From IMG/VR virus record IMGVR_UViG_2609460218_000016, positions 1-13,586 of that record: 13,586 bases of DNA; one strand, written 5' to 3'. The position numbers and the translations under genes are program-made. Each line of letters starts with the position of its first letter. The first letter of the stretch is position 1. Below, piece by piece: positions 1 to 13,586 of the stretch. The notes beneath the pieces were generated by a model that did no database searches, had not been told where the DNA came from, and saw only the letters and a list, made by a program, of their open reading frames with translations. This DNA comes from a virus (lineage: Duplodnaviria > Heunggongvirae > Uroviricota > Caudoviricetes).

Positions 1-1131
1 TCAAATGACCAGTTTTTTCCATTCCTTACCGCGTGCGTCGTTGTAAATATCGGTCATTTTTTGATTCGAATGGCCTAGCAAAATTTTGGTATCAACCCCC
101 TGCTCTCTTAACAATCGCTCTGATAAAGATCTCTGCTCATGGAAAGAGGGAGGGGTGCCATTAGCACGCCAGTTGTAATCCACAGAATCCCGGGCTTTTT
201 TAAATGCAACGGTTAATGTTGCTGGCTTAACCATCCCGCCGCGCTTAGCTGTCCCTTTCGCGTGATGGTGGTGCAATAGCCACGGACTAAGAACGCAATC
301 GCGGCAGGATGACACCACATCATCCAGGGTGAGATTTAATTTATCGCAACGCAGAGCCAGAGGGATGGCAATCCGGGTTCCTGTTTTTTGCTGTTCGACA
401 TGAAGATAACCATCCCGGATATCCGAAAATTGCATTTTGCAAATATCTGAAAGGCGCTGGCCTGTCATCAGTGCCAGCAGCATACCGCGCTGTAAAAAGT
501 AACCATCCTTTTCCGCTGCGTTATAAATCATCATCCACTCATCAAAAGTCAGTCGCTGTCTTGATATCCGCACCTGCGGTTTTTTTGCCGATTCTGCAGG
601 GTTAAAGCCTGGCGGGACATCGCCCGTTTGCTGAGCTTCCCGGAAAACATCGATCAGTACCTTCCTGAAAATTTGTCCCATTCTGTTATGTCCTCTGGCC
701 TTGTACTCTTCCAGTACTGATACCACATCTTTTACGGTTATGGCATCTAACGGTCTGGTGCCAAAACGTTCATCAAATACCCTGAGAGGGGCCGCTTTCT
801 GTTTCAGCGTGTTGAGTTTGATCTCGCCGTTTTCATATCTTTCCTGTTGAATTTTTCTGTAATTATTCAGAAAAATGGTAACGGTTGATGAACCGCCGGT
901 ATCACTAATAATTTTCTCCTGCAGACTGAGCATTTGTTCCATTTGCTGCCGGGCAAGACGGCTGTTCGCTTCTGCTGCAATAGTTTCTGCCAGTTTCTGG
1001 TCAATACTGCCGAGACCGTGATTTTTGCCTGTTATGGGATGCCTGTAACGCCAGTAAACTTTGTTATTTCTTTTGTCAAAATACGGAGATAATCCCGGAA
1101 CATTGGTTTTATATTTTCGCGGGCGCGCCAT
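1..1131 (-). CDS. int: Phage tyrosine integrase (lambda Int family)
   Basis: 376-aa minus-strand ORF. N-terminus (MARPRKYKTNVPGLSPYF..YWRYRHPITGK..GLG) and C-terminus (HEQRSLSERLL..LLGHSNQKMTDIYNDARGKEWKKLVI) resemble lambda Int. Sits at the prophage end next to an excisionase, with the lambda-like int/xis overlap. Confidence 0.9.
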   Translation of the reverse strand: MARPRKYKTNVPGLSPYFDKRNNKVYWRYRHPITGKNHGLGSIDQKLAETIAAEANSRLARQQMEQMLSLQEKIISDTGGSSTVTIFLNNYRKIQQERYENGEIKLNTLKQKAAPLRVFDERFGTRPLDAITVKDVVSVLEEYKARGHNRMGQIFRKVLIDVFREAQQTGDVPPGFNPAESAKKPQVRISRQRLTFDEWMMIYNAAEKDGYFLQRGMLLALMTGQRLSDICKMQFSDIRDGYLHVEQQKTGTRIAIPLALRCDKLNLTLDDVVSSCRDCVLSPWLLHHHHAKGTAKRGGMVKPATLTVAFKKARDSVDYNWRANGTPPSFHEQRSLSERLLREQGVDTKILLGHSNQKMTDIYNDARGKEWKKLVI

Positions 1132-1357
1132 CTTCCAGTATCCTCTTCAAAGCAGGGTGATCTGTGGCGATCACCTCCGGCTTGTTTACCATTCCGACAA
1201 AGCGAGCTTGCGGATCCACTCGCCAGCGTCTTCCAACTTTTTTGGGGAGAGGAAATATCATTCCGGCTTTAGCGTATTTACTTAACGTACTCGGAGTTGG
1301 GACCGGTTCACTGAATTCCTCTTTTGCCCACTCAGTGAGCAGAATAAGTCTTGCCAT
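1109..1357 (-). CDS. xis: Excisionase (Xis-like)
   Basis: 82-aa ORF directly upstream of int on the same strand, overlapping the int start by 23 nt. The motif GMIFPLPKKVGRRWRV resembles the lambda Xis DNA-binding region. Assignment by position and motif, not a search. Confidence 0.7.
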   Translation of the reverse strand: MARLILLTEWAKEEFSEPVPTPSTLSKYAKAGMIFPLPKKVGRRWRVDPQARFVGMVNKPEVIATDHPALKRILEDGAPAKI

Positions 1358-1421
1358 GAGCGTCGTTCGCTAATCATGGTCGCCGCCACTATAGCTGGTG
1401 GGCAACGACCGGGGTTGAACA

Positions 1422-3893
1422 TTAAAAATCAGCCTGATTCGGGATCAGTTTTTGCCAGATAACTGAAACGTATTTTGCCTGGTAACGGGCGTCATCAAGT
1501 GCATTATGGCGCTCACCTTCGAATGGAATAGCCGTTCTGGCATCGAAGTCTATGGCTTTCCCCAGCTCAACGATTGTGCGTACATCGCGATCGTTGTAGT
1601 AACGCCACGGGCAGGGGATCCCCTGCCGTTCGTATGAACGGCGCAAAATCGTGTTGTCGAAGTTGGCTCCATTTCCCCAAACCTGAACAAAAAATTCACC
1701 GGAGTTTTCGTCGATAAATTCCCGCAATTGTAACAGTGCATCATCTAACGGGATTTCATCGGTCATAATGGCAGATTGCGCTTCGCGTGATTGCTTAAGC
1801 CACCATTTAATGGTGTCCCGATCAATGACTCCGCCAGCAGTTTCCAGATCGATAGTCTTACTAAATTCCGGTCCCATATCTCCGGTTTGCGGATCGAAAA
1901 ATATTGCACCTATTGAGATGATCGGGGCATCAGGATTTTTTCCCATGGTTTCAAGGTCGATCATTAGATGGTCACACGTCCTGCTGGTGGATGTGATTTC
2001 GTGATGACCGTTCACCTTAATTGAGTGATCTGCCGTCTCGCCAGTTTCATTATCGCTATTGTGATGCTGATTGCCGCCAGTGTTCTCCTTGTGTGGATGT
2101 TCAGCGCCTTCCATTTCCTCCAGATCATCTTCCTGAACTTCAACCTGATACTCTTCATCGAATGTTTCCTGGTATGTTGCGTCGCCCATCACCGCGCCAC
2201 AATCAGGGCAGTTGCCGCCGCCGGTCTGACCGCAGGCGGTGCAGACTTTTTCCACTTCCAGTTGCGCCACTGGTTCAGGCTGTTTCGTTTCTGGCTCGTT
2301 TTGTAACGCATTTGTGCTGTTTTGTTCCGCTTTTTGGTAGTTCCGTTCCGATTCATGCTGGTTCTGGTTCACAGAATCGCGGGTCTGGATCCCCTTAACC
2401 CATTTCGGATCATTCGGGTCACTAATCCCTTCAACAAATTCACCACGTGATGCAGCAAGCAACTTATCGGCGTCAGGCTGGCTGATATTGGCTGCCTGCA
2501 TAATTTTGTTTACTTCGTCAGCGGTAACTTTTATCGGCTCTGGTTGTTCTGAATCTTCAGCGGTATCTACATTTTGCGGTAAGCCCGTGTATGTGCCATT
2601 TTTTCGGGCAAAATATTCTTCTTTTGTGATTTCAGTGGCGCCAGCAGCCAGTGCCTTATCCAGACCAGAAAGTTTGTTTGCGCGACCGTATTTTTCTCCG
2701 TCCTTATCTGCGAAGAGGAAATAGAACGGCCCCTCACGCTCTACAGATGGTTCAGCTTCCGGCGCGGTTTCATTTTTTGGGATATCAGATACCTCAGTTT
2801 CCACTGCATCAGTTTGTGTTTCTGATGACTGGAGAACATCAACAGTGCCCAGGTCTGTTTCTTCATTCTCAAACACGCCCTTTGTCGTCAGGTATTCGCA
2901 GATATATTTGTTCAGTGCTATGGGATCTTTGTGAATGTCGATCGGACGCTCACGGACAAGGCCAAAAATAGTCTGGCGGTCGTAGCGAAGGGCATCAGGC
3001 TGTTTGCGCATTGATGCCGAGATACGCTTCCAGTCTTCGCGGTCGTTGTCGATAACTTCTTTTTTTGCCCAGCGATGGATGCTGCCGTCAATGTTTCCGG
3101 CATCCACATCACCAGGCCAGAGAGCGTAGGCCAGTTCGTCATCCAGTGTTTTCCATGTCTGCTTGTATTCGCGATGAATGGCAGCAATGACCGGGCTGAT
3201 TTTTCCTGTTGAATTTTCAGTGTACTGTTGATTGGTTCTGGCGCGGGCGAGATCAACAACAGACGTGTATTTTCCGGTTTCCTTGCGTTCACCTTCGCGA
3301 CGTTTTTTCCAGATGCGCATCTCTGCCTGAATTTCGGGCCATTTAGCACCAGGAATACATTTATGCTTAACCCACCCAATGGCGTGCAACTTAAGCTCCG
3401 GATACATGGCGTTAACTTCTGGCATTTTCATCAACGCTTCAACGATATGTCCGTCGAATGTTGCCATGTCTTCCTGCAACAATTCCTGTGCGCTAATAAC
3501 CATATCAACGGTGATGTTTTCACATGTGTCGAACTTAACCATGACAGCGTTCTGTACTTCAGGGGCCAGCTTGTCAAAAGTGACGTTCATCGGATCGGAT
3601 TCAGTCTCAACCGGGACAAAAGAAGCAGACTCCTCATCCCAGCGGTTTTCCTGCATATATTCAGCATCCCATGAATCGAGGGCAGGGCGGGGTATGCCAG
3701 GTTTATCCTCGCAGACAATAAATTTATAAGCGCAGTCCTGAGCAGCCGGATAATGTTCCAGGAACTGCCAGTGAAATTTTGCTCGAGCACGGCGTTCGTC
3801 GCCAGCTTCAATGGCTGTGGCTACAGCCACAGCGCCTTCTTCCCTTGTTGCCAGTTCGTCAGGAATAGCGGCGCAAATAAAGACTTTACTCAT
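1422..3893 (-). CDS. Prophage exonuclease (exodeoxyribonuclease VIII-like, with C-terminal DnaQ/DEDDh-type 3'-5' exonuclease domain)
   Basis: 823-aa ORF with an SD-like GAGGT upstream of the ATG at 3893. The C-terminal ~190 aa carry DEDDh-like motifs (MIDLETMG, NGANFD, HNALDDARY). A CxxC..CxxC zinc ribbon (CTACGQTGGGNCPDCG) and a long acidic low-complexity linker precede it. It occupies the recombination-gene slot between xis and the immunity region. Confidence 0.8.
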   Translation of the reverse strand: MSKVFICAAIPDELATREEGAVAVATAIEAGDERRARAKFHWQFLEHYPAAQDCAYKFIVCEDKPGIPRPALDSWDAEYMQENRWDEESASFVPVETESDPMNVTFDKLAPEVQNAVMVKFDTCENITVDMVISAQELLQEDMATFDGHIVEALMKMPEVNAMYPELKLHAIGWVKHKCIPGAKWPEIQAEMRIWKKRREGERKETGKYTSVVDLARARTNQQYTENSTGKISPVIAAIHREYKQTWKTLDDELAYALWPGDVDAGNIDGSIHRWAKKEVIDNDREDWKRISASMRKQPDALRYDRQTIFGLVRERPIDIHKDPIALNKYICEYLTTKGVFENEETDLGTVDVLQSSETQTDAVETEVSDIPKNETAPEAEPSVEREGPFYFLFADKDGEKYGRANKLSGLDKALAAGATEITKEEYFARKNGTYTGLPQNVDTAEDSEQPEPIKVTADEVNKIMQAANISQPDADKLLAASRGEFVEGISDPNDPKWVKGIQTRDSVNQNQHESERNYQKAEQNSTNALQNEPETKQPEPVAQLEVEKVCTACGQTGGGNCPDCGAVMGDATYQETFDEEYQVEVQEDDLEEMEGAEHPHKENTGGNQHHNSDNETGETADHSIKVNGHHEITSTSRTCDHLMIDLETMGKNPDAPIISIGAIFFDPQTGDMGPEFSKTIDLETAGGVIDRDTIKWWLKQSREAQSAIMTDEIPLDDALLQLREFIDENSGEFFVQVWGNGANFDNTILRRSYERQGIPCPWRYYNDRDVRTIVELGKAIDFDARTAIPFEGERHNALDDARYQAKYVSVIWQKLIPNQADF

Positions 3894-3986
3894 TTTGTTT
3901 TAACCTCATGACAGATTTAAGGATGAACAAATCCCTGCCATTGCTGGCATATAAGAATGAAACCGGATATTTATTACGGAACTGTT

Positions 3987-4179
3987 TTAAAGACCTGCCG
4001 GGATTTCGATATTATCCTGGTGAATAACTTTATCGACCGGGTAACAGTTACCGGGAATTTTCTGTTCGGTTGCTGCAGTCATACACTCCTGCATTGTCCT
4101 GTGCACACTGACTGCAATATCAACTGGCTCTCCGGAAACAAGNAAAAACTGTCAGAACAAGCACAAATGCTGAATTCAT
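3987..4179 (-). CDS. Hypothetical small protein, frame interrupted at the ambiguous base 4143
   Basis: ATG at 4179..4177 overlaps the stop of the upstream ORF as ATGA. The frame stops after 19 codons unless the N at 4143 (in a T-run on the coding strand) is skipped, which gives about 63 aa (MNSAFVLVLTVF-LVSGEPVDIAVSVHRTMQECMTAATEQKIPGNCYPVDKVIHQDNIEIPAGL). Hydrophobic N-terminus. Weak call. Confidence 0.25.
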
Positions 4180-4364
4180 TGTGCACATCCTTTTGGCATC
4201 AGACGTAAACGAGCCAGCATTGAAACAATGCATATTTTATTTAATAGCTCCCGTTCTTGTTTTCTCTTGTTAATGGCATCTTCAGTAAATACTGGGTTAC
4301 TGATAGTGACACCAATTTCAAAACAACCTTCAGACGTATTAACGTTTGGTAATAACGTTTTCAT
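4176..4364 (-). CDS. Hypothetical small protein (62 aa; ORF extends to 4469 if the first ATG is used)
   Basis: Internal ATG at 4364 has an SD-like GAGGA 7 nt upstream. Its stop overlaps the next minus-strand ATG (ATGA at 4176-4179), suggesting translational coupling. No recognisable domain. Confidence 0.4.
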   Translation of the reverse strand: MKTLLPNVNTSEGCFEIGVTISNPVFTEDAINKRKQERELLNKICIVSMLARLRLMPKGCAQ

Positions 4365-4923
4365 TATCGCGTCCTCAACAATGAATTTTGTGATGCAGTG
4401 CCTGGTGCCTCCAGGTGACGTTAACCAGTTAACAATTAACGCCGGATACAGAGAATCCACCCATAACACTGTTTTTGGTTTTAACTGTTCCGCGTGCGCT
4501 CAGCCGCATTCACCACATCACAAAATTCACTTTAAAAAGGGCGGCAGAGCAGTCACGGAGTAAAACTGATACCGCCAAACGTCACCAGAAAATTGATAAC
4601 AGAGGGCGTTGCAGCGGGGTTGTCACTTAAGCGTATGGTCAACCTGACAACCCGGTGTCCTCAACGGGGGAAGGAATAACCCCGCCATACTTACCGCCGC
4701 ACCATTTCGCGGATTGCCACAACCGGAAGCGCACGGTCGAACTAAATTTAACGACACCGTACAGAGAGACCAATTTCGCCGTGCGCTTTCGCGTTATGCC
4801 CTGACTTTTCAGGGACATATCCTTTCAGTAAACTGTCAGTGCCGGATGTTCACCCGTGTCCGGCGCACGCACTCCACCTGACCCGTGGAGAACTCCTTAA
4901 TTACCAACCCTCAGGAGGGTGAA

Positions 4924-5202
4924 ATGGATAAAAAGCAAATTGAGGCCCTGCAATCTATTATTGAAAAACAAGATGAAGCTATCAGGATTCTTTCATATCG
5001 CACTGATATGATACTAAATATGCTTTCTGCATTAACGGCTGCGCTTGGTGGTACAAAAACAAACGTATACCGCGAAGTTGTTATTCAACAGATAGATAAA
5101 TTTGAAAAAACCATACCAGGTATTAATGCTCATCTTGCAGAACAAGAGAAAGACCATGCTCTTATGGCAATTTCTTCAGTAGCTCTCCCGAAAGTTGAGT
5201 AG
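4924..5202 (+). CDS. Hypothetical protein (92 aa, predicted helical)
   Basis: Strong SD (AGGAGG) 5 nt upstream of the ATG at 4924; the ORF track starts it at 4885. AT-rich codon usage. Convergent with the 133-aa minus-strand ORF and overlaps it by about 40 nt at the 3' ends. Function unknown. Confidence 0.4.
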   Translation: MDKKQIEALQSIIEKQDEAIRILSYRTDMILNMLSALTAALGGTKTNVYREVVIQQIDKFEKTIPGINAHLAEQEKDHALMAISSVALPKVE

Positions 5203-5563
5203 TTTTAATTGTTGTTTTGAAATAATCACTGCTTTCACATTTGAGTGATTTCATGGCAATCCAAATGCGGGCCTCTGTGCCTGCATTTGGTTCCAGTTGC
5301 TGTAGACGTTTTGCGTCTTCCAAAAGTAAGGCGATAATGTGTTTCAGCTTCTCATCATTTGCTTGATTCTTGTTTTCAGGCGAATTCTGTCCGCCGAATA
5401 GGCGCTTCTCTTCATACAGACCTATAAAGGCACGACGCACGTTACCGGATATAGTATCGATGGTTTCTTTTTCTACGGTACTCAGGTCAAGAGTCGCCAG
5501 TTGAGAGCGAACCACATTCGATGCCATTTCCTGGAATGGTACTGGTAAATCTTTAAATTCCAT
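5162..5563 (-). CDS. Hypothetical protein (about 133 aa)
   Basis: Minus-strand ORF with an SD-like GAGGT 5 nt upstream of the ATG at 5563. An alternative ATG at 5575 overlaps the upstream stop (TGATG). Second gene of the leftward operon after the candidate OL. No domain recognised. Confidence 0.55.
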   Translation of the reverse strand: MEFKDLPVPFQEMASNVVRSQLATLDLSTVEKETIDTISGNVRRAFIGLYEEKRLFGGQNSPENKNQANDEKLKHIIALLLEDAKRLQQLEPNAGTEARIWIAMKSLKCESSDYFKTTIKTTQLSGELLKKLP

Positions 5564-5574
5564 CGTCAACCTCA

Positions 5575-5808
5575 TCAGTCAGTGTTTCTGGTTAACCAGC
5601 GACGCGCGCCAGCTTCAGTTTTAAACGTTTTGCTTCTGGTATACGTCATCGCGGTAAACGTGCCGTCCTGGTTGGGGAATACGCCACATACCAGAGATTC
5701 GTTGTTGCCAAGATTGAGCATATCCATGTTGACCTCATTTCCCCTTAACGCCGGGGTAGCGGAACAAAAACCTGCTGCATAGTTATTAAAGTTGAACCCT
5801 GCCGTCAT
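5575..5808 (-). CDS. Hypothetical small protein, first gene leftward of the immunity region (possible Kil-like position)
   Basis: 77-aa ORF, or about 50 aa from the internal ATG at 5727, which has an SD-like GAGGT. Stop is coupled to the next ORF start. It sits just downstream of the candidate OL operator. The C-terminal motif TEAGARRWL is noted, but any Kil assignment is speculative. Confidence 0.45.
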   Translation of the reverse strand: MTAGFNFNNYAAGFCSATPALRGNEVNMDMLNLGNNESLVCGVFPNQDGTFTAMTYTRSKTFKTEAGARRWLTRNTD

Positions 5809-5910
5809 GTTCTTACGCCTCGGGCTGGCTACTTAACCCCTGACCACTGCCTGGTAACTCGAAGTATTGCCCTGCATTCTGTGGGGCGGGGTGGGTTGGT
5901 ATGTTGTTAA

Positions 5911-5926
5911 GGTAACAAGAGTTACC
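5911..5926. promoter_or_regulatory. Candidate OL operator: palindrome GGTAAC-AAGA-GTTACC
   Basis: Perfect GTAAC-N4-GTTAC inverted repeat, the same core as the two palindromes between the repressor and cro-like genes. A TTGACT hexamer lies just upstream on the minus strand. Located between the repressor terminator and the first leftward gene. Confidence 0.4.
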
Positions 5927-5965
5927 TTTCGAGTCAATACAATGTTGCAAAAGGTACATTTGAGG

Positions 5966-5995
5966 GCATAAAAAACCCGCAATGAATGCGGGTTC
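5966..5995 (-). terminator. Rho-independent terminator downstream of the repressor reading frame
   Basis: On the minus strand: 7-bp GC-rich stem (ACCCGCA / TGCGGGT, 5975-5981 and 5987-5993) with a 5-nt loop, followed by TTTTTTAT. It lies immediately after the stop (6002..6000) of the reconstructed repressor C-terminal frame. Confidence 0.55.
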
Positions 5996-5999
5996 TGAC

Positions 6000-6292
6000 T
6001 CAGTCTAAGTATTGATGTATTTGTGAAACTTTACCTTTAATGGTGTAACCACCATTCAGTTCGATGGGTTTGTAAAGCGGATTCAGTGACAACAGATAGA
6101 TGTTTGGTCCGTCAATCGCAACNTTTTTTTAGTGTTACGTTTGGCGTTCCTTCCAATTGGATTAAGATTATTTTTCCCACCAGTTCTCTAATGTTACTTG
6201 AGCATGGTGTGATCAGCACGGTAGATCCGTCGGGGATGGTTGGGAGGCCGTTAGAGTTTGTCATCGCATCTCCCTCAACATGCAATNAAAAA
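6000..6292 (-). other. Out-of-frame continuation encoding the S24 (LexA/CI-type) peptidase-like C-terminal domain of the repressor
   Basis: Skipping the ambiguous bases at 6287 and 6123 (both beside homopolymer runs) joins the repressor ORF to ..NSF-L-LHVEGDAMTNSNGLPTIPDGSTVLITP..GKIILIQLEGTPNVTLKK-VAIDGPNIYLLSLNPLYKPIELNGGYTIKGKVSQIHQYLD*. This aligns by eye with the lambda CI C-terminal domain (FWLEVEGNSM..FTFKKLIRD..LNPQYPMI..GKVI). Stop at 6002..6000. Confidence 0.6.
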
Positions 6293-6775
6293 AGAGTTTT
6301 CAGCGGTTTTTGTCATGACATCAACCCAATTCTTAATACCAGGAATCTCGGTTACTGGACAACTCATATCCCAATAACCAGCCTGTTCCCACGTTAAAAC
6401 GGGCAACCGGGCGATGTTGTCACTAATGTAAGGGTACTGATTCAGACGCAGATCATCGGCTTTATCGTGACCGTCCTTTCCATAAAGAATCCATTCAGGA
6501 GATTTGGAAAGCAATTTTGACAGTAGATACAAATTCTCACCGTCAGGTTTTGAAGAGCCATTTTCCCATTTTGTTACGGATACACGAGATATGCCGATTG
6601 CTTTCGCAACCTGCTGTTGGGTTAATCCAACGTCTTTTCGACGATTCCGAATACGTTCGCTGATAGTGTTTTTCATGTAACCAATGTTACTACCAAGTGA
6701 TGTTGCTATGGTTGACATTGTTATGTAACTATTGTTACCCTTCTGCTCGAAATAACAGGAGAGTTTTATGTTCAA
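6275..6775 (-). CDS. CI-like phage repressor, N-terminal HTH (XRE-family) portion as assembled
   Basis: Helix-turn-helix motif LTQQQVAKAIGISRVSVTKWENG, divergent from a cro-like gene. The true start is more likely the internal ATG at 6718 or 6676 (MKNTISERIRNRRK..), since a start at 6775 would overlap the cro-like start. The frame ends at 6275 just after ..PVLTWEQAGYWD..ENSF, the beginning of an S24 domain. Confidence 0.8.
   Translation of the reverse strand: MNIKLSCYFEQKGNNSYITMSTIATSLGSNIGYMKNTISERIRNRRKDVGLTQQQVAKAIGISRVSVTKWENGSSKPDGENLYLLSKLLSKSPEWILYGKDGHDKADDLRLNQYPYISDNIARLPVLTWEQAGYWDMSCPVTEIPGIKNWVDVMTKTAENSFXIAC
6677..6738. promoter_or_regulatory. Candidate OR operator pair (GTAAC-N4-GTTAC at 6677-6690 and 6725-6738) with a rightward promoter -35 (TTGACA 6712-6717)
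   Basis: Two perfect 14-bp palindromes, GTAACCAATGTTAC and GTAACTATTGTTAC, lie between the divergent repressor and cro-like genes. A consensus TTGACA sits between them. The -10 element is not clear. Confidence 0.45.
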
Positions 6776-6983
6776 AGATGATGTTCTGCGCTATTTCAAA
6801 AAAAAGCGACTAGTAGCTGAGGCTCTTGGAATTTCACATGTGGCTGTTGTGCGGTGGAAAGCAGTTATTCCCAAACTTCGCGCAATGGAACTGGATGAAA
6901 TTACTAACAGTGAATTGAAATACAACCCAGAACTTTACAAGAAGCAGGATAGCACCTCAAACGAAGGAAAGAATGATTCATGA
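6768..6983 (+). CDS. Cro/YdaS-like small HTH regulator
   Basis: 71-aa ORF with SD AGGAG 7 nt upstream, divergent from the repressor. HTH (LVAEALGISHVAVVRWK) followed by the IPKLRAMELDEITNSELKYNPELY pattern typical of YdaS-family proteins. Stop overlaps the next gene start (ATGA). Confidence 0.8.
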   Translation: MFKDDVLRYFKKKRLVAEALGISHVAVVRWKAVIPKLRAMELDEITNSELKYNPELYKKQDSTSNEGKNDS

Positions 6984-7405
6984 AAATCAAGCATGAACAC
7001 ATCCGCATGGCGATGAATGTCTGGGCGCATCCGGACGGCGAAAAAGTACCGGCTGCGAAAATTACCAAAGCGTATTTCGAGCTGGGAATGACGTTCCCGG
7101 AACTGTATGACGACAGCCATCCGGAAGCCCTGGCCCGTAATACCCAGAAAATTTTCCGTTGGCTGGATAAAGACACCCCTGATGCTGTTGAAAAAATGCA
7201 GGCTCTGTTACCGGCGATCGAAAAGGCGATGCCGCCTTTGCTGGTGGCCCGTATGCGTAGCCACAGTTCTGAATATTACCGTGATATCGTCGAACGGAGG
7301 GATCGGCTGGTGAAGGATGTCGATGATTTTGTTGCGTCAGCGGTTGTTTTGTATGACCAGATGAATCGCGGCGGCCCGGCAGGGAATGCTGTGGTGATGC
7401 ACTAA
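6980..7405 (+). CDS. YdaT-like protein (CII-position gene of Rac-like prophages)
   Basis: 141-aa ORF beginning MKIKHEHI and ending ..VVMH, which matches my recollection of the Rac prophage YdaT family. Translationally coupled to the cro-like gene. Confidence 0.75.
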   Translation: MKIKHEHIRMAMNVWAHPDGEKVPAAKITKAYFELGMTFPELYDDSHPEALARNTQKIFRWLDKDTPDAVEKMQALLPAIEKAMPPLLVARMRSHSSEYYRDIVERRDRLVKDVDDFVASAVVLYDQMNRGGPAGNAVVMH

Positions 7406-7427
7406 AAGCACGGTGTTCGGGGGTTTT

Positions 7428-8390
7428 ATGAGCAGCAAGCTTCATGGTCTTGTCTGGGAAGGGTGCGCCTTCACCGGCATGATCTTATCCAGGGTGGCGG
7501 TTATGGCCCGTCTTGCAGACTACAGCAATGACGAGGGCGTGTCATGGCCTGCCATTGAAACTATCCGGCGTCAGATCGGTGCAAGAAGTGAATCCACAGT
7601 GAAATCGGCTATTGCAGAACTGGCGAAAGAGGGCTGGCTGACGAAGGAAGAGCGTAAGGTCGGTGGGCGTAATGTAAGCAATATCTATCGGCTTAATGTG
7701 GAAAAACTCGAAGCAGCTGCGGCGGCGGCGCGTGAGTCATATAAACCGAAAAGAAAAATTAGCCCGGCAAAAAATGACCCGTTAACAGTTGACCCGTCAA
7801 ATATTGACCCCTCAACGGTTGACCCGTCAAATTTTGATGGATCAACTGTTGATAAAAAACTGCCGATTANGGGGCCGATGATTGACCCCGATCCGTCAGT
7901 ATTAAAACCTGATCCGTCAGATAAAAGATCTTCTTGTCCGGACGCTTCGCAACCGGACCCGCAGACGGCTGAACAGGATTTTTTAACCCGACACCCTGAC
8001 GCGGTTGTGTTCAGTGCGAAAAAACGCCAGTGGGGAAGTCAGGAAGATTTGGTGTGCGCACAGTGGATCTGGGGACGAATCGTGAGTCTTTACGAGCAGG
8101 CGGCCAGCTATGATGGCGAGATCACTAGACCGAAAGAACCCAACTGGACAGCATGGGCCAATGACGTTCGCACAATGCGGATGCTGGATGGCAGAACTCA
8201 CAGACAAATTTGTGAAATGTTTGGGCGTCTCCAGCGGGATTCGTTCTGGGTAAAAAACATCATGAGTCCGGCAAAACTCCGGGAAAAATGGGATGAACTG
8301 GTTATCCGCCTGGGGCGTTCGCCTGCGCAGCGTTGCGTGAATCACATTTCTGAACCGGACACTGAAATACCGCCGGGATTCAGGGGGTGA
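7428..8390 (+). CDS. Phage replication initiator (O-like, HTH-containing)
   Basis: ORF track starts at a GTG (7413); the ATG at 7428 is preferred. N-terminal winged-helix region, four palindromic iterons inside the coding sequence, and a C-terminal domain followed directly by a DnaC-like gene. Contains the ambiguous base 7869. Confidence 0.8.
   Translation: MSSKLHGLVWEGCAFTGMILSRVAVMARLADYSNDEGVSWPAIETIRRQIGARSESTVKSAIAELAKEGWLTKEERKVGGRNVSNIYRLNVEKLEAAAAAARESYKPKRKISPAKNDPLTVDPSNIDPSTVDPSNFDGSTVDKKLPIXGPMIDPDPSVLKPDPSDKRSSCPDASQPDPQTAEQDFLTRHPDAVVFSAKKRQWGSQEDLVCAQWIWGRIVSLYEQAASYDGEITRPKEPNWTAWANDVRTMRMLDGRTHRQICEMFGRLQRDSFWVKNIMSPAKLREKWDELVIRLGRSPAQRCVNHISEPDTEIPPGFRG
7789..7845. repeat. 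Origin-like iteron array: four 12-bp palindromic repeats at 15-bp spacing inside the initiator gene
   Basis: TTGACCCGTCAA (7789-7800), TTGACCCCTCAA (7804-7815), TTGACCCGTCAA (7819-7830) and TTGATGGATCAA (7834-7845). Followed by an A-rich stretch and two GATCCGTCAG repeats with GATC sites at 7890-7920. Same arrangement as lambda ori inside gene O. Confidence 0.6.
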
Positions 8391-8396
8391 CGTGTC

Positions 8397-9143
8397 ATGA
8401 AAAACATTGCGGCAGGCGGCGTTCTTGAACGTATCCGAAGACTGGCTCCGCCACATGTAACCGCCCCATTCAGAACGGTAGCGGAGTGGCACGAGTGGCA
8501 ACTTGCTGAAGGCCAGAAACGTAGCGAGGAGATCAACCGCCTGAATCGCCAGTTGCGGGTGGAAAAAATTCTGAATCGCTCAGGCATCCAGCCGTTGCAC
8601 CGTAAATGCTCGTTTGCGAATTACCAGGTGCAGAACGACGGTCAGCGATACGCGTTGAGCCAGGCGAAATCTATCGCTGATGAACTGATGACCGGATGCA
8701 CAAATTTCGCGTTTAGCGGAAAACCTGGTACCGGGAAGAACCACTTAGCAGCAGCTATCGGGAATCGCCTGCTGAAAGACGGTCAGACAGTGATTGTGGT
8801 TACCGTNGCTGATGTTATGAGTGCCCTCCACGCCAGCTATGACGATGGGCAGTCAGGCGAAAAATTTTTGCGGGAACTGTGCGAAGTGGATCTGCTGGTT
8901 CTTGATGAAATTGGCATTCAGCGCGAGACGAAAAACGAGCAGGTGGTACTGCACCAGATTGTTGATCGCCGGACAGCGTCGATGCGCAGCGTGGGGATGC
9001 TGACAAACCTGAACTATGAGGCCATGAAAACATTGCTCGGCGAGCGGATTATGGATCGCATGACCATGAACGGCGGGCTATGGGTGAATTTTAACTGGGA
9101 GAGCTGGCGTCCGAATGTCGTCCAGCCAGGAATTGCGAAGTAA
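8397..9143 (+). CDS. DnaC-family replicative helicase loader (AAA+ ATPase)
   Basis: 248-aa ORF with Walker A ([15 protein letters not shown]) and Walker B (DLLVLDEIG). Reads as collinear with E. coli DnaC along its length (e.g. [31 protein letters not shown]). Contains the ambiguous base 8807, in frame. Confidence 0.9.
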
Positions 9144-9165
9144 TTTTTACCGGGAGAAAAATTTA

Positions 9166-9927
9166 ATGGAGACTGTTTTTGACGCACTGAAAGCAATGGG
9201 AAAAGCCACATCCATAGAACTTGCTGCGCGACTTGATATCAGTCGTGAAGAAGTGCTGAACGAACTATGGGAACTGAAAAAGGCTGGTTTTGTTGATAAA
9301 AGCGCGTACACCTGGCGTGTGGCTGATAACAACGTTCAGCAGGAACAGCCAGCGCAGGCAGAACTGCCGGAAGAAATCACCACAGCAACAGTAGCGAAAA
9401 TCTCAGAGTGCGATTTAACCGCGACGATTGAACAACGAGGACCACAAACGGCTGATGAGCTGGCTACATTGTTTGGTACCACATCACGCAAAGTGGCTTC
9501 AACGCTGGCAATGGCAATCAGCAAAGGTCGTCTGATTCGCGTAAATCAGGGCGGTAAATTTCGTTACTGCATACCGGGCGATAATTTACCAGCAGAGCCG
9601 AAAGCAGCATCGGTAGCGGAAACTGATGGTAAGGCCTTTCCTCATACCGCAGGTGTTGCGTTACCAGTACAGGAGGCTGCAACACAGGAAGATATTAAAA
9701 CAGAAACTGTGGCGGACATTGTGCAGTCGCTGCCATCGTTTACTGAAACGCGAGCGGATGACCTGGTTTTACCATCACTGCATATGGCAAACCGCGAACT
9801 GCGTCGGGCGAAAAATCATGTCCAGAAGTGGGAGCGAGTCTGCGCCGCGCTGCGGGAGCTGAACAAGCACCGGGATATTGTTCGACAGATTACTGATTCT
9901 TCCCGCCGTGTTGTATCGGAAAAGTGA
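9166..9927 (+). CDS. Hypothetical prophage protein with two predicted winged-helix modules
   Basis: ATG at 9166 with an upstream GGAG; the ORF track starts at 9115. Two HTH-like segments ([30 protein letters not shown] and [33 protein letters not shown]). Follows the DnaC-like gene. Confidence 0.7.
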
Positions 9928-9942
9928 TTGCCGGAGGCGCTT

Positions 9943-10374
9943 ATGGCAAAAGTATTTACACAAGAAGAGCGGGAAAAAATTAAAGGGCAGGTTGTTGAGC
10001 TAGTACGCCGGAGTGGGCGCGAGACGTTACGGCAACTGGAAGCCAAGACAGGTGCGACAAGATATCTGATGAGCGTTCTCGCCAGAGAGCTGGTTGCCAG
10101 TGGCGATGTATACAACTCTGGTTACGGGTTATTCCCGTCTGAACAGGCTCGTAAGGACTGGCAAAATGCCCGCAAAAAACTATCCAGGGCAAAGGTGAAG
10201 AAACCATCTGTGGTTGATCCGGACCTTATCTGGTCATTACCAGACGGAGAAATACGCCGCTACGACAGGCGTCTGAACATAATCTGTCGCGAGTGCCGGA
10301 AGAGCGAAGTTATGCAGCGTGTGCTGGCGTTTTATCAGAATGGTTTTCGAGAGAGGCTTGGAGATCANGGATGA
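9943..10374 (+). CDS. Hypothetical prophage protein
   Basis: ATG at 9943 with SD GGAGG 5 nt upstream. Basic, with a single CxxC. The ambiguous base 10368 lies two codons before the stop. Confidence 0.65.
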   Translation: MAKVFTQEEREKIKGQVVELVRRSGRETLRQLEAKTGATRYLMSVLARELVASGDVYNSGYGLFPSEQARKDWQNARKKLSRAKVKKPSVVDPDLIWSLPDGEIRRYDRRLNIICRECRKSEVMQRVLAFYQNGFRERLGDXG

Positions 10375-10566
10375 ATAGAACGATGAAGGATGGAAGCTAC
10401 ATATTCTCGGTACTAAGATTTATTTTTCTGACACAAAATGACCATTTGGCGTTACATAATCCAAAAAAACGTATCAAAAATCTCAAAATGCGTTACGATT
10501 AGAGAGTATTTTGATTCTGCGTGCTCATTTTTTGATTGCTGTGGCTTTTTGTTGTGGGAGTGTTGA

Positions 10567-11721
10567 ATGGATTATTTATCAGAAGTGTTAAAAATCATTG
10601 AAGGTGCAACAAAGGCAAATGCTTCGATGGCTAGTAATTATGCTGGGTTGCTGGCAGATAAGCTCGAACAAAAAGGGGAGGTCAAGCAAGCCAGAATGAT
10701 AAGAGAAAGGTTGCTTAGAGCTCCCCAGGCGTTGGCAGGAGCTCAAAGGGCTGGAGGTGGGATATCTCTGGGCTCATTACCGGTAGATATTGATAGTCGA
10801 CTCAACACTGTTGATGTCAGTTATCCTAAATTAGACAGTTCAGAGATTTTTCTGCCTGCAGCAATCAGTACCCGTGTTGAAGAGTTTATCACTAATGTTC
10901 AACGTTATGATGAGTTTGTTAAAGCTGATGCAGCATTGCCGAGTCGTATGCTCGTGTATGGAAAGCCAGGAACAGGTAAGACTATGTTATCTAAGTACAT
11001 CGCTACCCGCTTAGATTTTCCACTTCTTACAGTGCGTTGCGATACTTTGATTAGTAGTTTATTGGGACAAACCAGCAAAAATCTTAGACAGGTTTTCGAT
11101 TATGTAATGCAGAGGCCATCAGTGCTTTTTTTAGACGAATTTGATGCTTTAGCTGGAGCAAGAGGTAATGAGAGAGATATAGGTGAGCTTCAGCGAGTTG
11201 TCATTTCACTATTGCAGAATATGGATGCGGCATCAGAGGATACGGTAATTATTGCCTCAACTAACCATGAGCAACTTCTGGATCCTGCAATCTGGAGGCG
11301 ATTTAGCTTCAGAATTCCAATGCCTCTGCCTGACATACATCAGAGAGAGTTAATTTGGAAAAATCGTTTAAAGAATATGATATGTAGCGATCTAGATTTA
11401 AGTGATTTATCAAGAAAATCGGAGGGATTATCCGGAGCAATAATTGAACAGGTGAGCTTGGATGCACGTAGGGATGCAGTTATTGAAGGTGCAAGTGTGA
11501 TAAATCACCATAAATTGTATAGGCGTTTGTATCTTGCGCAATCGCTTATGGAAGGTGTAAATTTAAGCACTTACGAAGATGAAATTCGTTGGTTACGTTC
11601 TAAAGATAAAAAATTATTTTCTATCAGAGTTCTTGCTAATTTGTACAAACTTACATCAAGAGTAATTTCAAACATTCTGAAGGAGTCAGGAGCATATGAG
11701 CAGAAGGGGTACACAGTTTAG
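10567..11721 (+). CDS. AAA+ ATPase (classical AAA clade), putative ATPase subunit of a two-gene defence module (IetA-like architecture)
   Basis: 384-aa ORF with SD GGGAG upstream. Walker A GKPGTGKT, Walker B VLFLDEFD, sensor-1 IIASTN, and the second region of homology / Arg finger DPAIWRRF. The N-terminal ~120 aa have no recognisable domain. The gene is markedly AT-rich compared with the phage backbone. Confidence 0.9.
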   Translation: MDYLSEVLKIIEGATKANASMASNYAGLLADKLEQKGEVKQARMIRERLLRAPQALAGAQRAGGGISLGSLPVDIDSRLNTVDVSYPKLDSSEIFLPAAISTRVEEFITNVQRYDEFVKADAALPSRMLVYGKPGTGKTMLSKYIATRLDFPLLTVRCDTLISSLLGQTSKNLRQVFDYVMQRPSVLFLDEFDALAGARGNERDIGELQRVVISLLQNMDAASEDTVIIASTNHEQLLDPAIWRRFSFRIPMPLPDIHQRELIWKNRLKNMICSDLDLSDLSRKSEGLSGAIIEQVSLDARRDAVIEGASVINHHKLYRRLYLAQSLMEGVNLSTYEDEIRWLRSKDKKLFSIRVLANLYKLTSRVISNILKESGAYEQKGYTV

Positions 11722-13321
11722 TAACGCAAAAGTTACAAACCCAATGTTAAGAATCCCTTTTTCCAGTAGTGACTTGGGTGCAATAGTAAACGCTGGCGGT
11801 GGGGCAAAGGTATTGGTTGATGTAACAGCCGAATATAGACAAGGGCTAGTAAGAAATTTAACAACCAGTAAACATTATTTAGAATCCAAACTTTCAGAGT
11901 ACCCTGGAAGCTTGGGTACTTTGGTTTTCAAATTAAGAGACCAGGGAATAGCCAAAACGCATAGGCCGAACAAAATTGCTCAAGAGGCTGGATTGCAAAA
12001 TGCCGGTCATGCCAAAATAGATGAAATGTTGGTTGCTGCTCATGCCGGCTGTTTTGACGTATTAGAGTCAGTCATTTTACATCGGAATATTAAAGCGATT
12101 TTGGCTAATCTAAGCGCGATTGAGCGCATTGAACCTTGGGATGAGAATAGGAAGGTTCCAGGAGGCACTGATGGTTTGTTTGAATCATCAAACATCCTTG
12201 TACGACTATTTGAGTACACAGGTGAAGATGCAACTTACAACAACTATGAAAACGTTATTTCTATATTAGAACAACACGGAGTTAAATATGATGAGATTAG
12301 ACCAAAATGTGGTCTTCCCTTATTAAGGATAATGGATTTATCCCCAAATGATAGATATATATTAGACATTCTCATTGATTACCCGGGTATAAGAACGTTA
12401 ATTCCAGAACCAAAATATTCAGCATTCCCGGTTAGTGTAAGTGATTCTGTTGGCATTGAAACAAATAGCTTTCCCGTACCATCAGAAGAATTACCCATTG
12501 TTGCTGTATTTGACACTGGGGTAAGCCCCATCGCGGCAACAATTACTCCTTGGGTAGTGAGTAGGGAAACATACGTAATTCCTCCTGATACGAGTTATGA
12601 ACATGGGACTATGGTGTCTTCATTGATATCAGGCGCTCATTTTTTAAATGACAATCATCCATGGATTCCTGATACAAAATCTAAAATCCATGATGTTTGT
12701 GCTTTAGATGAAAATGGATCTTATATATCAGATTTAATTCTGAGGCTAGCAGATGCTGTAAATAAAAGACCAGATATAAAAGTCTGGAATTTATCTTTGG
12801 GAGGCGGACCATGTAATGAGCAGATGTTTAGTGATTTTGCGATGGAGTTAGATCGGCTCAGCGATAAATTTGGTATTTTGTTTGTAGTTGCTGCAGGTAA
12901 TTATGTAGATGAACCTATACGTACATGGCCAAATCCTGATCCGCTTGGAGGTGCTGATTTAATTTCCTCTCCTGGAGAGTCAGTCCGAGCACTAACAGTT
13001 GGTTCAGTTTCTCATATGGAAGCTAATGATGCTTTAAGTGAAATTGGAACACCGACACCATATACTCGTCGTGGCCCTGGGCCTGTATTTACTCCAAAGC
13101 CAGATATAATCCATGCTGGCGGTGGGGTTCATAGACCTTGGAATGTAGGAGCAAGCAGTTTAAAGGTCGTAGGGCCAGATAATAGGCTTTGCTCTAATTT
13201 TGGTACTAGTTTTGCTGCTCCAATTGTGGCAAGTTTAGCTGCGCATACATGGCAGAGAATAGCCACTAATTCAGACTTTAATGTTTCACCGGCTTTGTTG
13301 AATAAATCAGATTTCGGGTAA
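11696..13321 (+). CDS. S8-family subtilisin-like serine peptidase, 3' end interrupted by IS insertion (IetS-like architecture)
   Basis: All four S8 catalytic motifs are present in order: Asp (VAVFDTGVS), His (HGTMVSS), Asn (VWNLSLGG) and Ser (GTSFAAP). The start overlaps the ATPase stop by 26 nt, indicating an operon. The last 10 codons and the stop are encoded by the IS terminal repeat starting at 13291, so the native C-terminus is missing or displaced. An alternative start is the ATG at 11744. Confidence 0.85.
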   Translation: MSRRGTQFSNAKVTNPMLRIPFSSSDLGAIVNAGGGAKVLVDVTAEYRQGLVRNLTTSKHYLESKLSEYPGSLGTLVFKLRDQGIAKTHRPNKIAQEAGLQNAGHAKIDEMLVAAHAGCFDVLESVILHRNIKAILANLSAIERIEPWDENRKVPGGTDGLFESSNILVRLFEYTGEDATYNNYENVISILEQHGVKYDEIRPKCGLPLLRIMDLSPNDRYILDILIDYPGIRTLIPEPKYSAFPVSVSDSVGIETNSFPVPSEELPIVAVFDTGVSPIAATITPWVVSRETYVIPPDTSYEHGTMVSSLISGAHFLNDNHPWIPDTKSKIHDVCALDENGSYISDLILRLADAVNKRPDIKVWNLSLGGGPCNEQMFSDFAMELDRLSDKFGILFVVAAGNYVDEPIRTWPNPDPLGGADLISSPGESVRALTVGSVSHMEANDALSEIGTPTPYTRRGPGPVFTPKPDIIHAGGGVHRPWNVGASSLKVVGPDNRLCSNFGTSFAAPIVASLAAHTWQRIATNSDFNVSPALLNKSDFG

Positions 13322-13586
13322 GTCTCCCCCGTAGCGGGTTGTGTTTTCAGGCAATACGCACGCTTTCAGGCATACCTGCTTTCGTCATTTTGTTCAGCGC
13401 TCGTACCAGGGCCATAGCCTCCGCAACCTGACCATCGTAGTCACGCAGCGTCAGTGAACCCCCGAACAGCTGTTTTACCCGGTACATCGCCGTTTCCGCT
13501 ATCGAGCGACGGTTGTAATCTGTTGTCCATTTCCACCGCGCATTACTCCCGGTCATTCGCTGATTAGCCACTGCACGGTTACGGTC
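13291..13586 (-). mobile_element. IS903-group (IS5 family) insertion sequence, partial, running off the window end
   Basis: The terminal sequence GGCTTTGTTGAATAAATC at 13291-13308 matches the IS903/IS102 inverted repeat as I recall it. The adjacent minus-strand ORF ends ..MTKAGMPESVRIA, which I recognise as the IS903 transposase C-terminus. Confidence 0.8.
13347..13586 (-). CDS. IS903-family transposase, C-terminal fragment (gene continues beyond the window)
   Basis: Minus-strand ORF open to the window edge. Translation ..RRSIAETAMYRVKQLFGGSLTLRDYDGQVAEAMALVRALNKMTKAGMPESVRIA*. Confidence 0.75.
   Translation of the reverse strand, partial: DRNRAVANQRMTGSNARWKWTTDYNRRSIAETAMYRVKQLFGGSLTLRDYDGQVAEAMALVRALNKMTKAGMPESVRIA

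Follow-up and report, generated by a model that had tools for sequence, protein, structure and literature searches.

The anti-phage system IetAS is carried by a prophage in a 13,586-nucleotide (nt) stretch of DNA (IMG/VR virus record IMGVR_UViG_2609460218_000016, Caudoviricetes, positions 1 to 13,586; hereafter the window), and in this copy the gene for its S8-family peptidase, iteS (ietS), runs directly into the insertion sequence (IS) IS903B and is read for a few more codons inside it. We put at about 85% the probability that the truncated peptidase, IteS, is inactive, misfolded or unstable and that the system no longer defends, because what remains is a subtilase core without its last helices and because the most conserved domain of the protein is lost. 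In the course of events that we propose, IS903B (IS5 family, 1057 bp) would have transposed into iteS of the prophage-borne IetAS; the resulting open reading frame (ORF) would encode IteS residues 1–532 followed by nine IS-encoded residues; the product, without the last core helices and the C-terminal beta-jelly-roll (222 residues), would be misfolded or inactive; and IetAS defence would be lost, with the IteA ATPase, the reported antitoxin, remaining intact.

The iteS–IS903B junction

Alignment of the window with two intact Escherichia coli loci showed identity up to position 13290 and unrelated sequence from 13291 onwards. In a search of plasmid records, positions 13291–13586 matched IS903B at 296 of 296 nt (E = 3e-153); at least 5000 records were matched, 4993 among the matches listed having at least 99% identity, and the matched features are annotated 'IS5-like element IS903B family transposase'. 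A complete IS903B copy on plasmid Rts1, which is 1057 bp long and has terminal inverted repeats that match each other, aligned to the window with no mismatches, the identity starting at the first base of the IS, GGCTTTGTTGAATAAATC. Upstream of the IS, the flanks in the window and in Rts1 are mismatched at 5 of 10 positions, and the C at 13290 agrees by coincidence. The possibility that the repeat belongs to a different element was ruled out by the 100% identity to IS903B over 296 nt.

The window enters the element from its right end and stops 296 bp (28%) into it, so that a partial IS903B lies at 13291–13586 on the minus strand. Its right terminal inverted repeat (IRR; GGCTTTGTTGAATAAATC, 13291–13308) equals the terminal repeat of the Rts1 copy. 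The 3' part of the transposase gene, comprising the last 79 codons and a TGA at 13347–13349, occupies 13347–13586 on the minus strand (translation ending in MTKAGMPESVRIA before the stop), in a position that fits the annotated Rts1 coding sequence, which begins 56 nt into the element; the part encoding the first 75% of the transposase, from its N-terminus, falls beyond the window. The transposase gene is antisense to iteS, and its transcription is directed back towards the peptidase gene. With a terminal inverted repeat at the element boundary and an IS903-type transposase gene, the element belongs to the IS903 group, whose member IS903B (18-bp terminal repeats, 9-bp target duplication) shares with it the terminal repeat, the transposase C-terminus and a stop codon at the expected offset; one end is visible here, and a standalone copy and part of a composite transposon (e.g. 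Tn903) are both compatible with it. An earlier note on this DNA, made from the sequence alone, had an IS903-family element starting at 13291 and the window ending inside it; both statements hold, the element being IS903B with native sequence up to 13290, and that the window end is a contig break is plausible.

The nine bases before the junction, TGTTTCACC (13282–13290, read from the window), continue as TGTTTCACCATCATTGATT in the intact locus. From the known 9-bp duplication of IS903, TGTTTCACC is predicted to be duplicated at the far end of the IS after a simple insertion, which would give the left end of the IS with the duplicated target, GATTTATTCAACAAAGCC, and then the rest of iteS, TGTTTCACCATCATTGATT, so that GATTTATTCAACAAAGCC would stand directly before TGTTTCACCATCATTGATTAAAGC.

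The fused reading frame

The intact gene of the AAA+ ATPase of IetAS, iteA (ietA), occupies 10567–11721 on the plus strand and was assigned by NCBIfam, PADLOC and protein identity. It is followed in the same orientation, with an overlap of 26 nt, by the native part of iteS (11696–13290, plus strand; codons 1–531 and two bases of codon 532), which is 100% identical to iteS of NZ_CP189662.1 over 1595 nt and encodes the N-terminal domain together with most of the S8 subtilase domain. The IS supplies the remainder at 13291–13321 on the same strand, namely the third base of codon 532, the nine codons ALLNKSDFG and a TAA at 13319–13321. The whole ORF (11696–13321) encodes 541 amino acids (aa) and ends ...NVSP-ALLNKSDFG*. 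Its residues 1–532 are identical to those of the intact IteS WP_032183377.1, and the two proteins differ from residue 533, residues 533–541 being ALLNKSDFG in the window; P532 is retained because CC|G at the junction and the native CCA both encode Pro. The translation agrees with the earlier note in the extent, frame and IS origin of this tail. As that note had also recognized, the S8 catalytic residues D273 (DTG), H303 (HGT), N402 (AAGN) and S505 (GTS) all lie upstream of the junction; the four are invariant in 40 homologues.

Identity and distribution of the defence system

Judged from sequence, the system named IteAS by NCBI is the IetAS system. IteA of the window scored 526.6 bits against NCBIfam NF042959 (IteA_antiphage; cut-off 510) over profile positions 1–367 of 367, and is the same protein as WP_000385105.1 of intact loci. 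IteS of the window scored 666 bits against NF042956 (cut-off 900) over positions 1–524 of 747, and the intact allele 1041 bits over positions 1–747; since the window copy falls below the equivalog cut-off, its gene is a disrupted member of IetAS and not an intact one. PADLOC called the pair IetA (8.9e-143) and IetS (E = 3e-194 for the fragment in the window). The earlier note had taken the peptidase gene as part of a defence system, and NCBIfam and PADLOC together identify that system as IetAS. The adjacent ATPase and S8 peptidase genes, the IteA score and the Asp/His/Ser catalytic triad are all as expected for IetAS, but the score of a full-length IteS is not reached. The window shares with IetAS the two-gene operon in which an AAA+ ATPase gene is followed by an overlapping S8 peptidase gene, and as far as the junction its DNA has 100% identity to iteAS as annotated in E. 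coli strain 102651; it differs in the cut after IteS residue 532 of 754.

Of 5426 complete E. coli genomes, 78 contain a match of at least 99% identity to the 1595 native nucleotides of iteS. All of these matches are at chromosomal loci, which are annotated 'iteS: S8 family anti-phage peptidase IteS' and preceded by 'iteA: anti-phage ATPase IteA'. A megablast search of plasmid records gave no match to iteS. The pair is also present, at 99.6% identity, in the isolated temperate Escherichia phage vB_EcoS-683R6 (ON470595.1; locus excerpt 4872–8265), where the two genes bear only the annotations 'cell division protein' and 'S8 family peptidase'. IetAS thus travels on genomes that have been isolated as phages. 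PMC13069673 traces the first description of IetA and IetS, as a toxin–antitoxin pair on plasmid pTiC58, to Yamamoto et al. (2009), and both PMC13069673 and bioRxiv 10.1101/2022.08.27.505566 credit the anti-phage role of IetAS to Gao et al. (2020).

Extent of the loss from IteS

In the 78 complete E. coli genomes, intact iteS is 2265 nt long and encodes 754 aa. The junction follows nucleotide 1595, at 70.6% of the ORF, so that 222 residues (29%) are displaced and the 3' 670 nt lie beyond it. The earlier note, which placed the IS in the 3' end of the gene and considered that the protein might be only trimmed, understated the severity of the lesion, in which a core helix and the C-terminal domain are removed; the comparison with intact homologues that it suggested is the one from which the 222 missing residues were counted. 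The alternative position of the IS just past the natural stop was rejected, as intact homologues extend 222 residues further. A length of 748–773 aa is shared by 116 of the 120 best matches to the family, which have 45–100% identity and come from Enterobacterales, Pseudomonas, Aeromonas, Burkholderia, Comamonas and Ralstonia; the four shorter ones (326, 676, 715 and 715 aa) are isolated entries that may be fragments.

Conservation was measured across 40 aligned homologues, diverse and of full length, with identity calculated relative to the E. coli protein. Invariant columns make up 22.1% (49 residues) of the lost region 533–754, compared with 14.1% of the retained region 1–532 and 7.5% of the N-terminal region 1–265, and mean identity is 67% in the lost and 54% in the retained region. 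No other part of the IteS family is conserved as well as the lost segment.

A confident AlphaFold2 model of intact IteS (mean predicted local distance difference test score, pLDDT, 82.3; predicted template modelling score, pTM, 0.86) places the helix that carries the catalytic Ser505 at 508–523, and the next helix of the subtilase core, 532–546, begins exactly at the junction. Short helices follow at 552–558 and 566–569, and a beta-rich domain, the C-terminal beta-jelly-roll, spans approximately 576–745. The Pfam Peptidase_S8 envelope covers residues 268–544 in the intact protein and 268–526 in the truncated one (profile 5–261 of 288), and the sequence match of IteS to KP-43 protease reaches residue 543; both accord with a subtilase domain that continues beyond the junction. 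According to the model, the insertion removes the final helices of the subtilase core and the complete conserved C-terminal beta-jelly-roll domain.

We found no solved structure of IetS; the only matches were the distant S8 structures 1wmd and 5fax, at E ~1e-5. Among subtilases with a C-terminal beta-sandwich (Tk-SP, 3afg; KP-43, 1wmd; SubHal, 5fax; and the kexin/furin P domain), the model of intact IteS aligns past the core of approximately 300 residues, over 428 residues with Tk-SP, its closest structural match, and 362 with KP-43, and the C-terminal part of these alignments is what the IS cuts off. Sequence identity to these enzymes is 16–19%, and the N-terminal region of IteS (about 265 aa) is much larger than theirs; unlike the members of this comparison set, IteS is an intracellular enzyme that works together with an ATPase. 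Its C-terminal domain may be needed for folding, like the P domain of kexin, or only for stability, like that of Tk-SP.

Prophage setting

Upstream of iteAS, the window carries the left arm of a Rac-like lambdoid prophage, of which the part between int and iteS is present. Its genes encode, in order, an integrase, an excisionase, an exonuclease, a cI-like repressor, a YdaT-family protein, O-like and DnaC-like proteins, and DUF1627 and DUF977 proteins, and are followed by iteAS. In intact relatives, iteAS is followed on its 3' side either by DUF968/RusA/antiterminator genes or by DUF1367/YbcO/Q genes. In related prophages that have no iteAS, similarity to the window ends at approximately 10337. 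The left edge of the iteAS cargo is thereby defined, and iteAS is accessory to the prophage; it sits between the replication and late-regulation modules of the E. coli Rac-like lambdoid prophage. A scan for promoters and terminators upstream of iteA (10300–10620) found neither, the 190-nt gap before iteA having no match to a sigma-70-like promoter or a terminator.

The window starts at the stop codon of a lambda-type integrase gene (1–1131, minus strand; Arm-DNA-binding and Phage_integrase domains) so that the attachment site and the flanking host DNA fall outside it; it appears to have been trimmed to a gene boundary. A minus-strand ORF at 1425–3893 encodes 823 aa, the last 170 of which form an Rv2179c-like 3'-5' exoribonuclease domain (2.3e-67), with no Pfam match in the first 640 or so. 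Isolated N calls occur at 4143, 6123, 6287, 7870, 8807 and 10368, four of the six immediately preceding homopolymers of five bases (NAAAAA twice, NTTTTT) or four (NGGGG), and two of the six inside ORFs, where they place an X in the DnaC-like and DUF977 proteins; this pattern points to a draft consensus that is uncertain near homopolymers.

Other disruptions of iteS

At least two of the 78 matching genomes carry small-mutation knockouts of iteS, both found among the 60 records that were listed. In strain NR3736 (NZ_AP040205.1; locus excerpt 1501–3765), iteS carries W519*, a stop at a family-invariant Trp that ends the protein 14 residues before the IS junction; in strain B19695 (NZ_CP196120.1; locus excerpt 1501–3764), a 1-nt deletion causes a frameshift that splits the gene near residue 287. 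The iteA gene is identical and intact in both strains. Like the allele in the window, these are independent disruptions of iteS beside an intact iteA; unlike it, they are base changes with no mobile element, and the 3' remainder of the gene is in place. Counting the IS allele, three separate disruptions of iteS were seen, and none of the ATPase gene among the matches listed.

Defence by a homologous IetAS depends on protease activity; the protease of the pair acts as toxin and the ATPase as antitoxin, and an ietA mutant could not be made; the anti-phage mechanism is described in the same study as still unknown (PMC13069673). An IetAS of Bacillus behaves as an abortive-infection system triggered by a single phage protein (bioRxiv 10.1101/2022.08.27.505566). 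In mycoplasmas, deletion of the protease gene or of both genes is tolerated, whereas deletion of the ATPase gene alone is lethal (PMC8562856). As the protease is the toxin of the pair in this literature, iteS would be the tolerated target, and an insertion in iteS rather than in iteA fits toxin–antitoxin logic. The earlier note read the insertion as the inactivation of a costly defence system; of the two parts of this reading, the inactivation is very likely and the cost is conjectural.

Searches for the allele and alternative explanations

The allele appears to be confined to the source strain. A query of 400 nt with the junction at its centre was found in none of 5426 complete E. coli genomes (at least 80% coverage), and the exact 541-aa fusion protein had no record in an index of 153 billion genes. 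A degenerate pattern for either junction (the IS repeat joined to the 9-mer target in either orientation) gave no occurrence in viral, genome and metagenome contig collections, a null result that is uninformative because the left junction, which is certain to exist, was also missed.

Several points weigh against loss of function by simple insertion. The catalytic triad and the oxyanion Asn are all retained, and residual activity is possible; the C-terminal jelly-roll of Tk-SP adds stability and is dispensable for activity; our literature search found no study of the role of IteS residues 533–754; the allele occurs in no other sequence searched, so that the junction has no independent confirmation; and, as the other end of the IS lies beyond the window, that the insertion was simple is an assumption. 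A protease that is only trimmed, with IteS(1–532) folding and keeping some defence or toxicity under the control of IteA, would accord with the presence of D273, H303, N402 and S505 and with the match to the Pfam S8 model, which still reaches 82 bits, and some subtilases tolerate the loss of C-terminal accessory domains. We nevertheless regard this as improbable, for the protein is broken within the S8 envelope, where a core helix begins, the lost segment with its 49 invariant residues is the most conserved in the family, full length is kept in 116 of the 120 best homologues, and the product falls under the equivalog cut-off. That the truncated allele has been kept for use, either with IteA as an orphan antitoxin against IetS from incoming plasmids or phages (anti-addiction) or with IteS(1–532) as a dominant-negative partner, seems to us very improbable; if it were true, the three alleles null for iteS and intact for iteA would reflect selection rather than decay.

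The nature of the event at the junction calls for separate weighing. An IS-mediated rearrangement instead of a simple insertion, whether an adjacent deletion, an inversion or recombination between two IS903B copies, would have removed or relocated the last third of iteS together with the prophage genes that lie downstream and would have left no 9-bp duplication, with IteS cut at the same residue. Adjacent deletions are a known activity of IS903, up to 46 places per E. coli genome match IS903B and would serve as recombination substrates, and the window shows one end of the IS only and just the left half of the prophage. Nothing in the window speaks against a rearrangement; simple insertion is, however, the more frequent event, and the full downstream region is present in all 78 complete genomes that match the native iteS sequence, though none of them carries the IS, and we consider a rearrangement unlikely, if well within reason. 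A chimeric contig end that joins iteS to IS903B by misassembly would be suggested by a window that ends in a multicopy repeat, by the six single N calls near homopolymer runs, which point to a draft consensus, and by a junction found in no other public sequence searched. But the switch from native to IS sequence falls exactly at the first base of the terminal repeat, as transposition predicts and a random misjoin would rarely produce, and identity is 100% on both sides; such an artefact is therefore very improbable.

Biological implications

IS903B is very common in enterobacteria, the defence system IetAS has already been catalogued, and the disruption of accessory genes by insertion sequences is routine. 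The allele described here is a fresh instance of a known phenomenon, an ordinary gene knockout that would not surprise specialists in insertion sequences or phage defence. For annotation, defence finders that work gene by gene could still call the strain IetAS-positive, as IteA passes and the IteS fragment is called by PADLOC at E = 3e-194, in a source strain in which IetAS is very probably dead. For the biology of the family, the allele adds a small data point: in a pair made up of a protease toxin and an ATPase antitoxin, it is the protease gene that has been knocked out.
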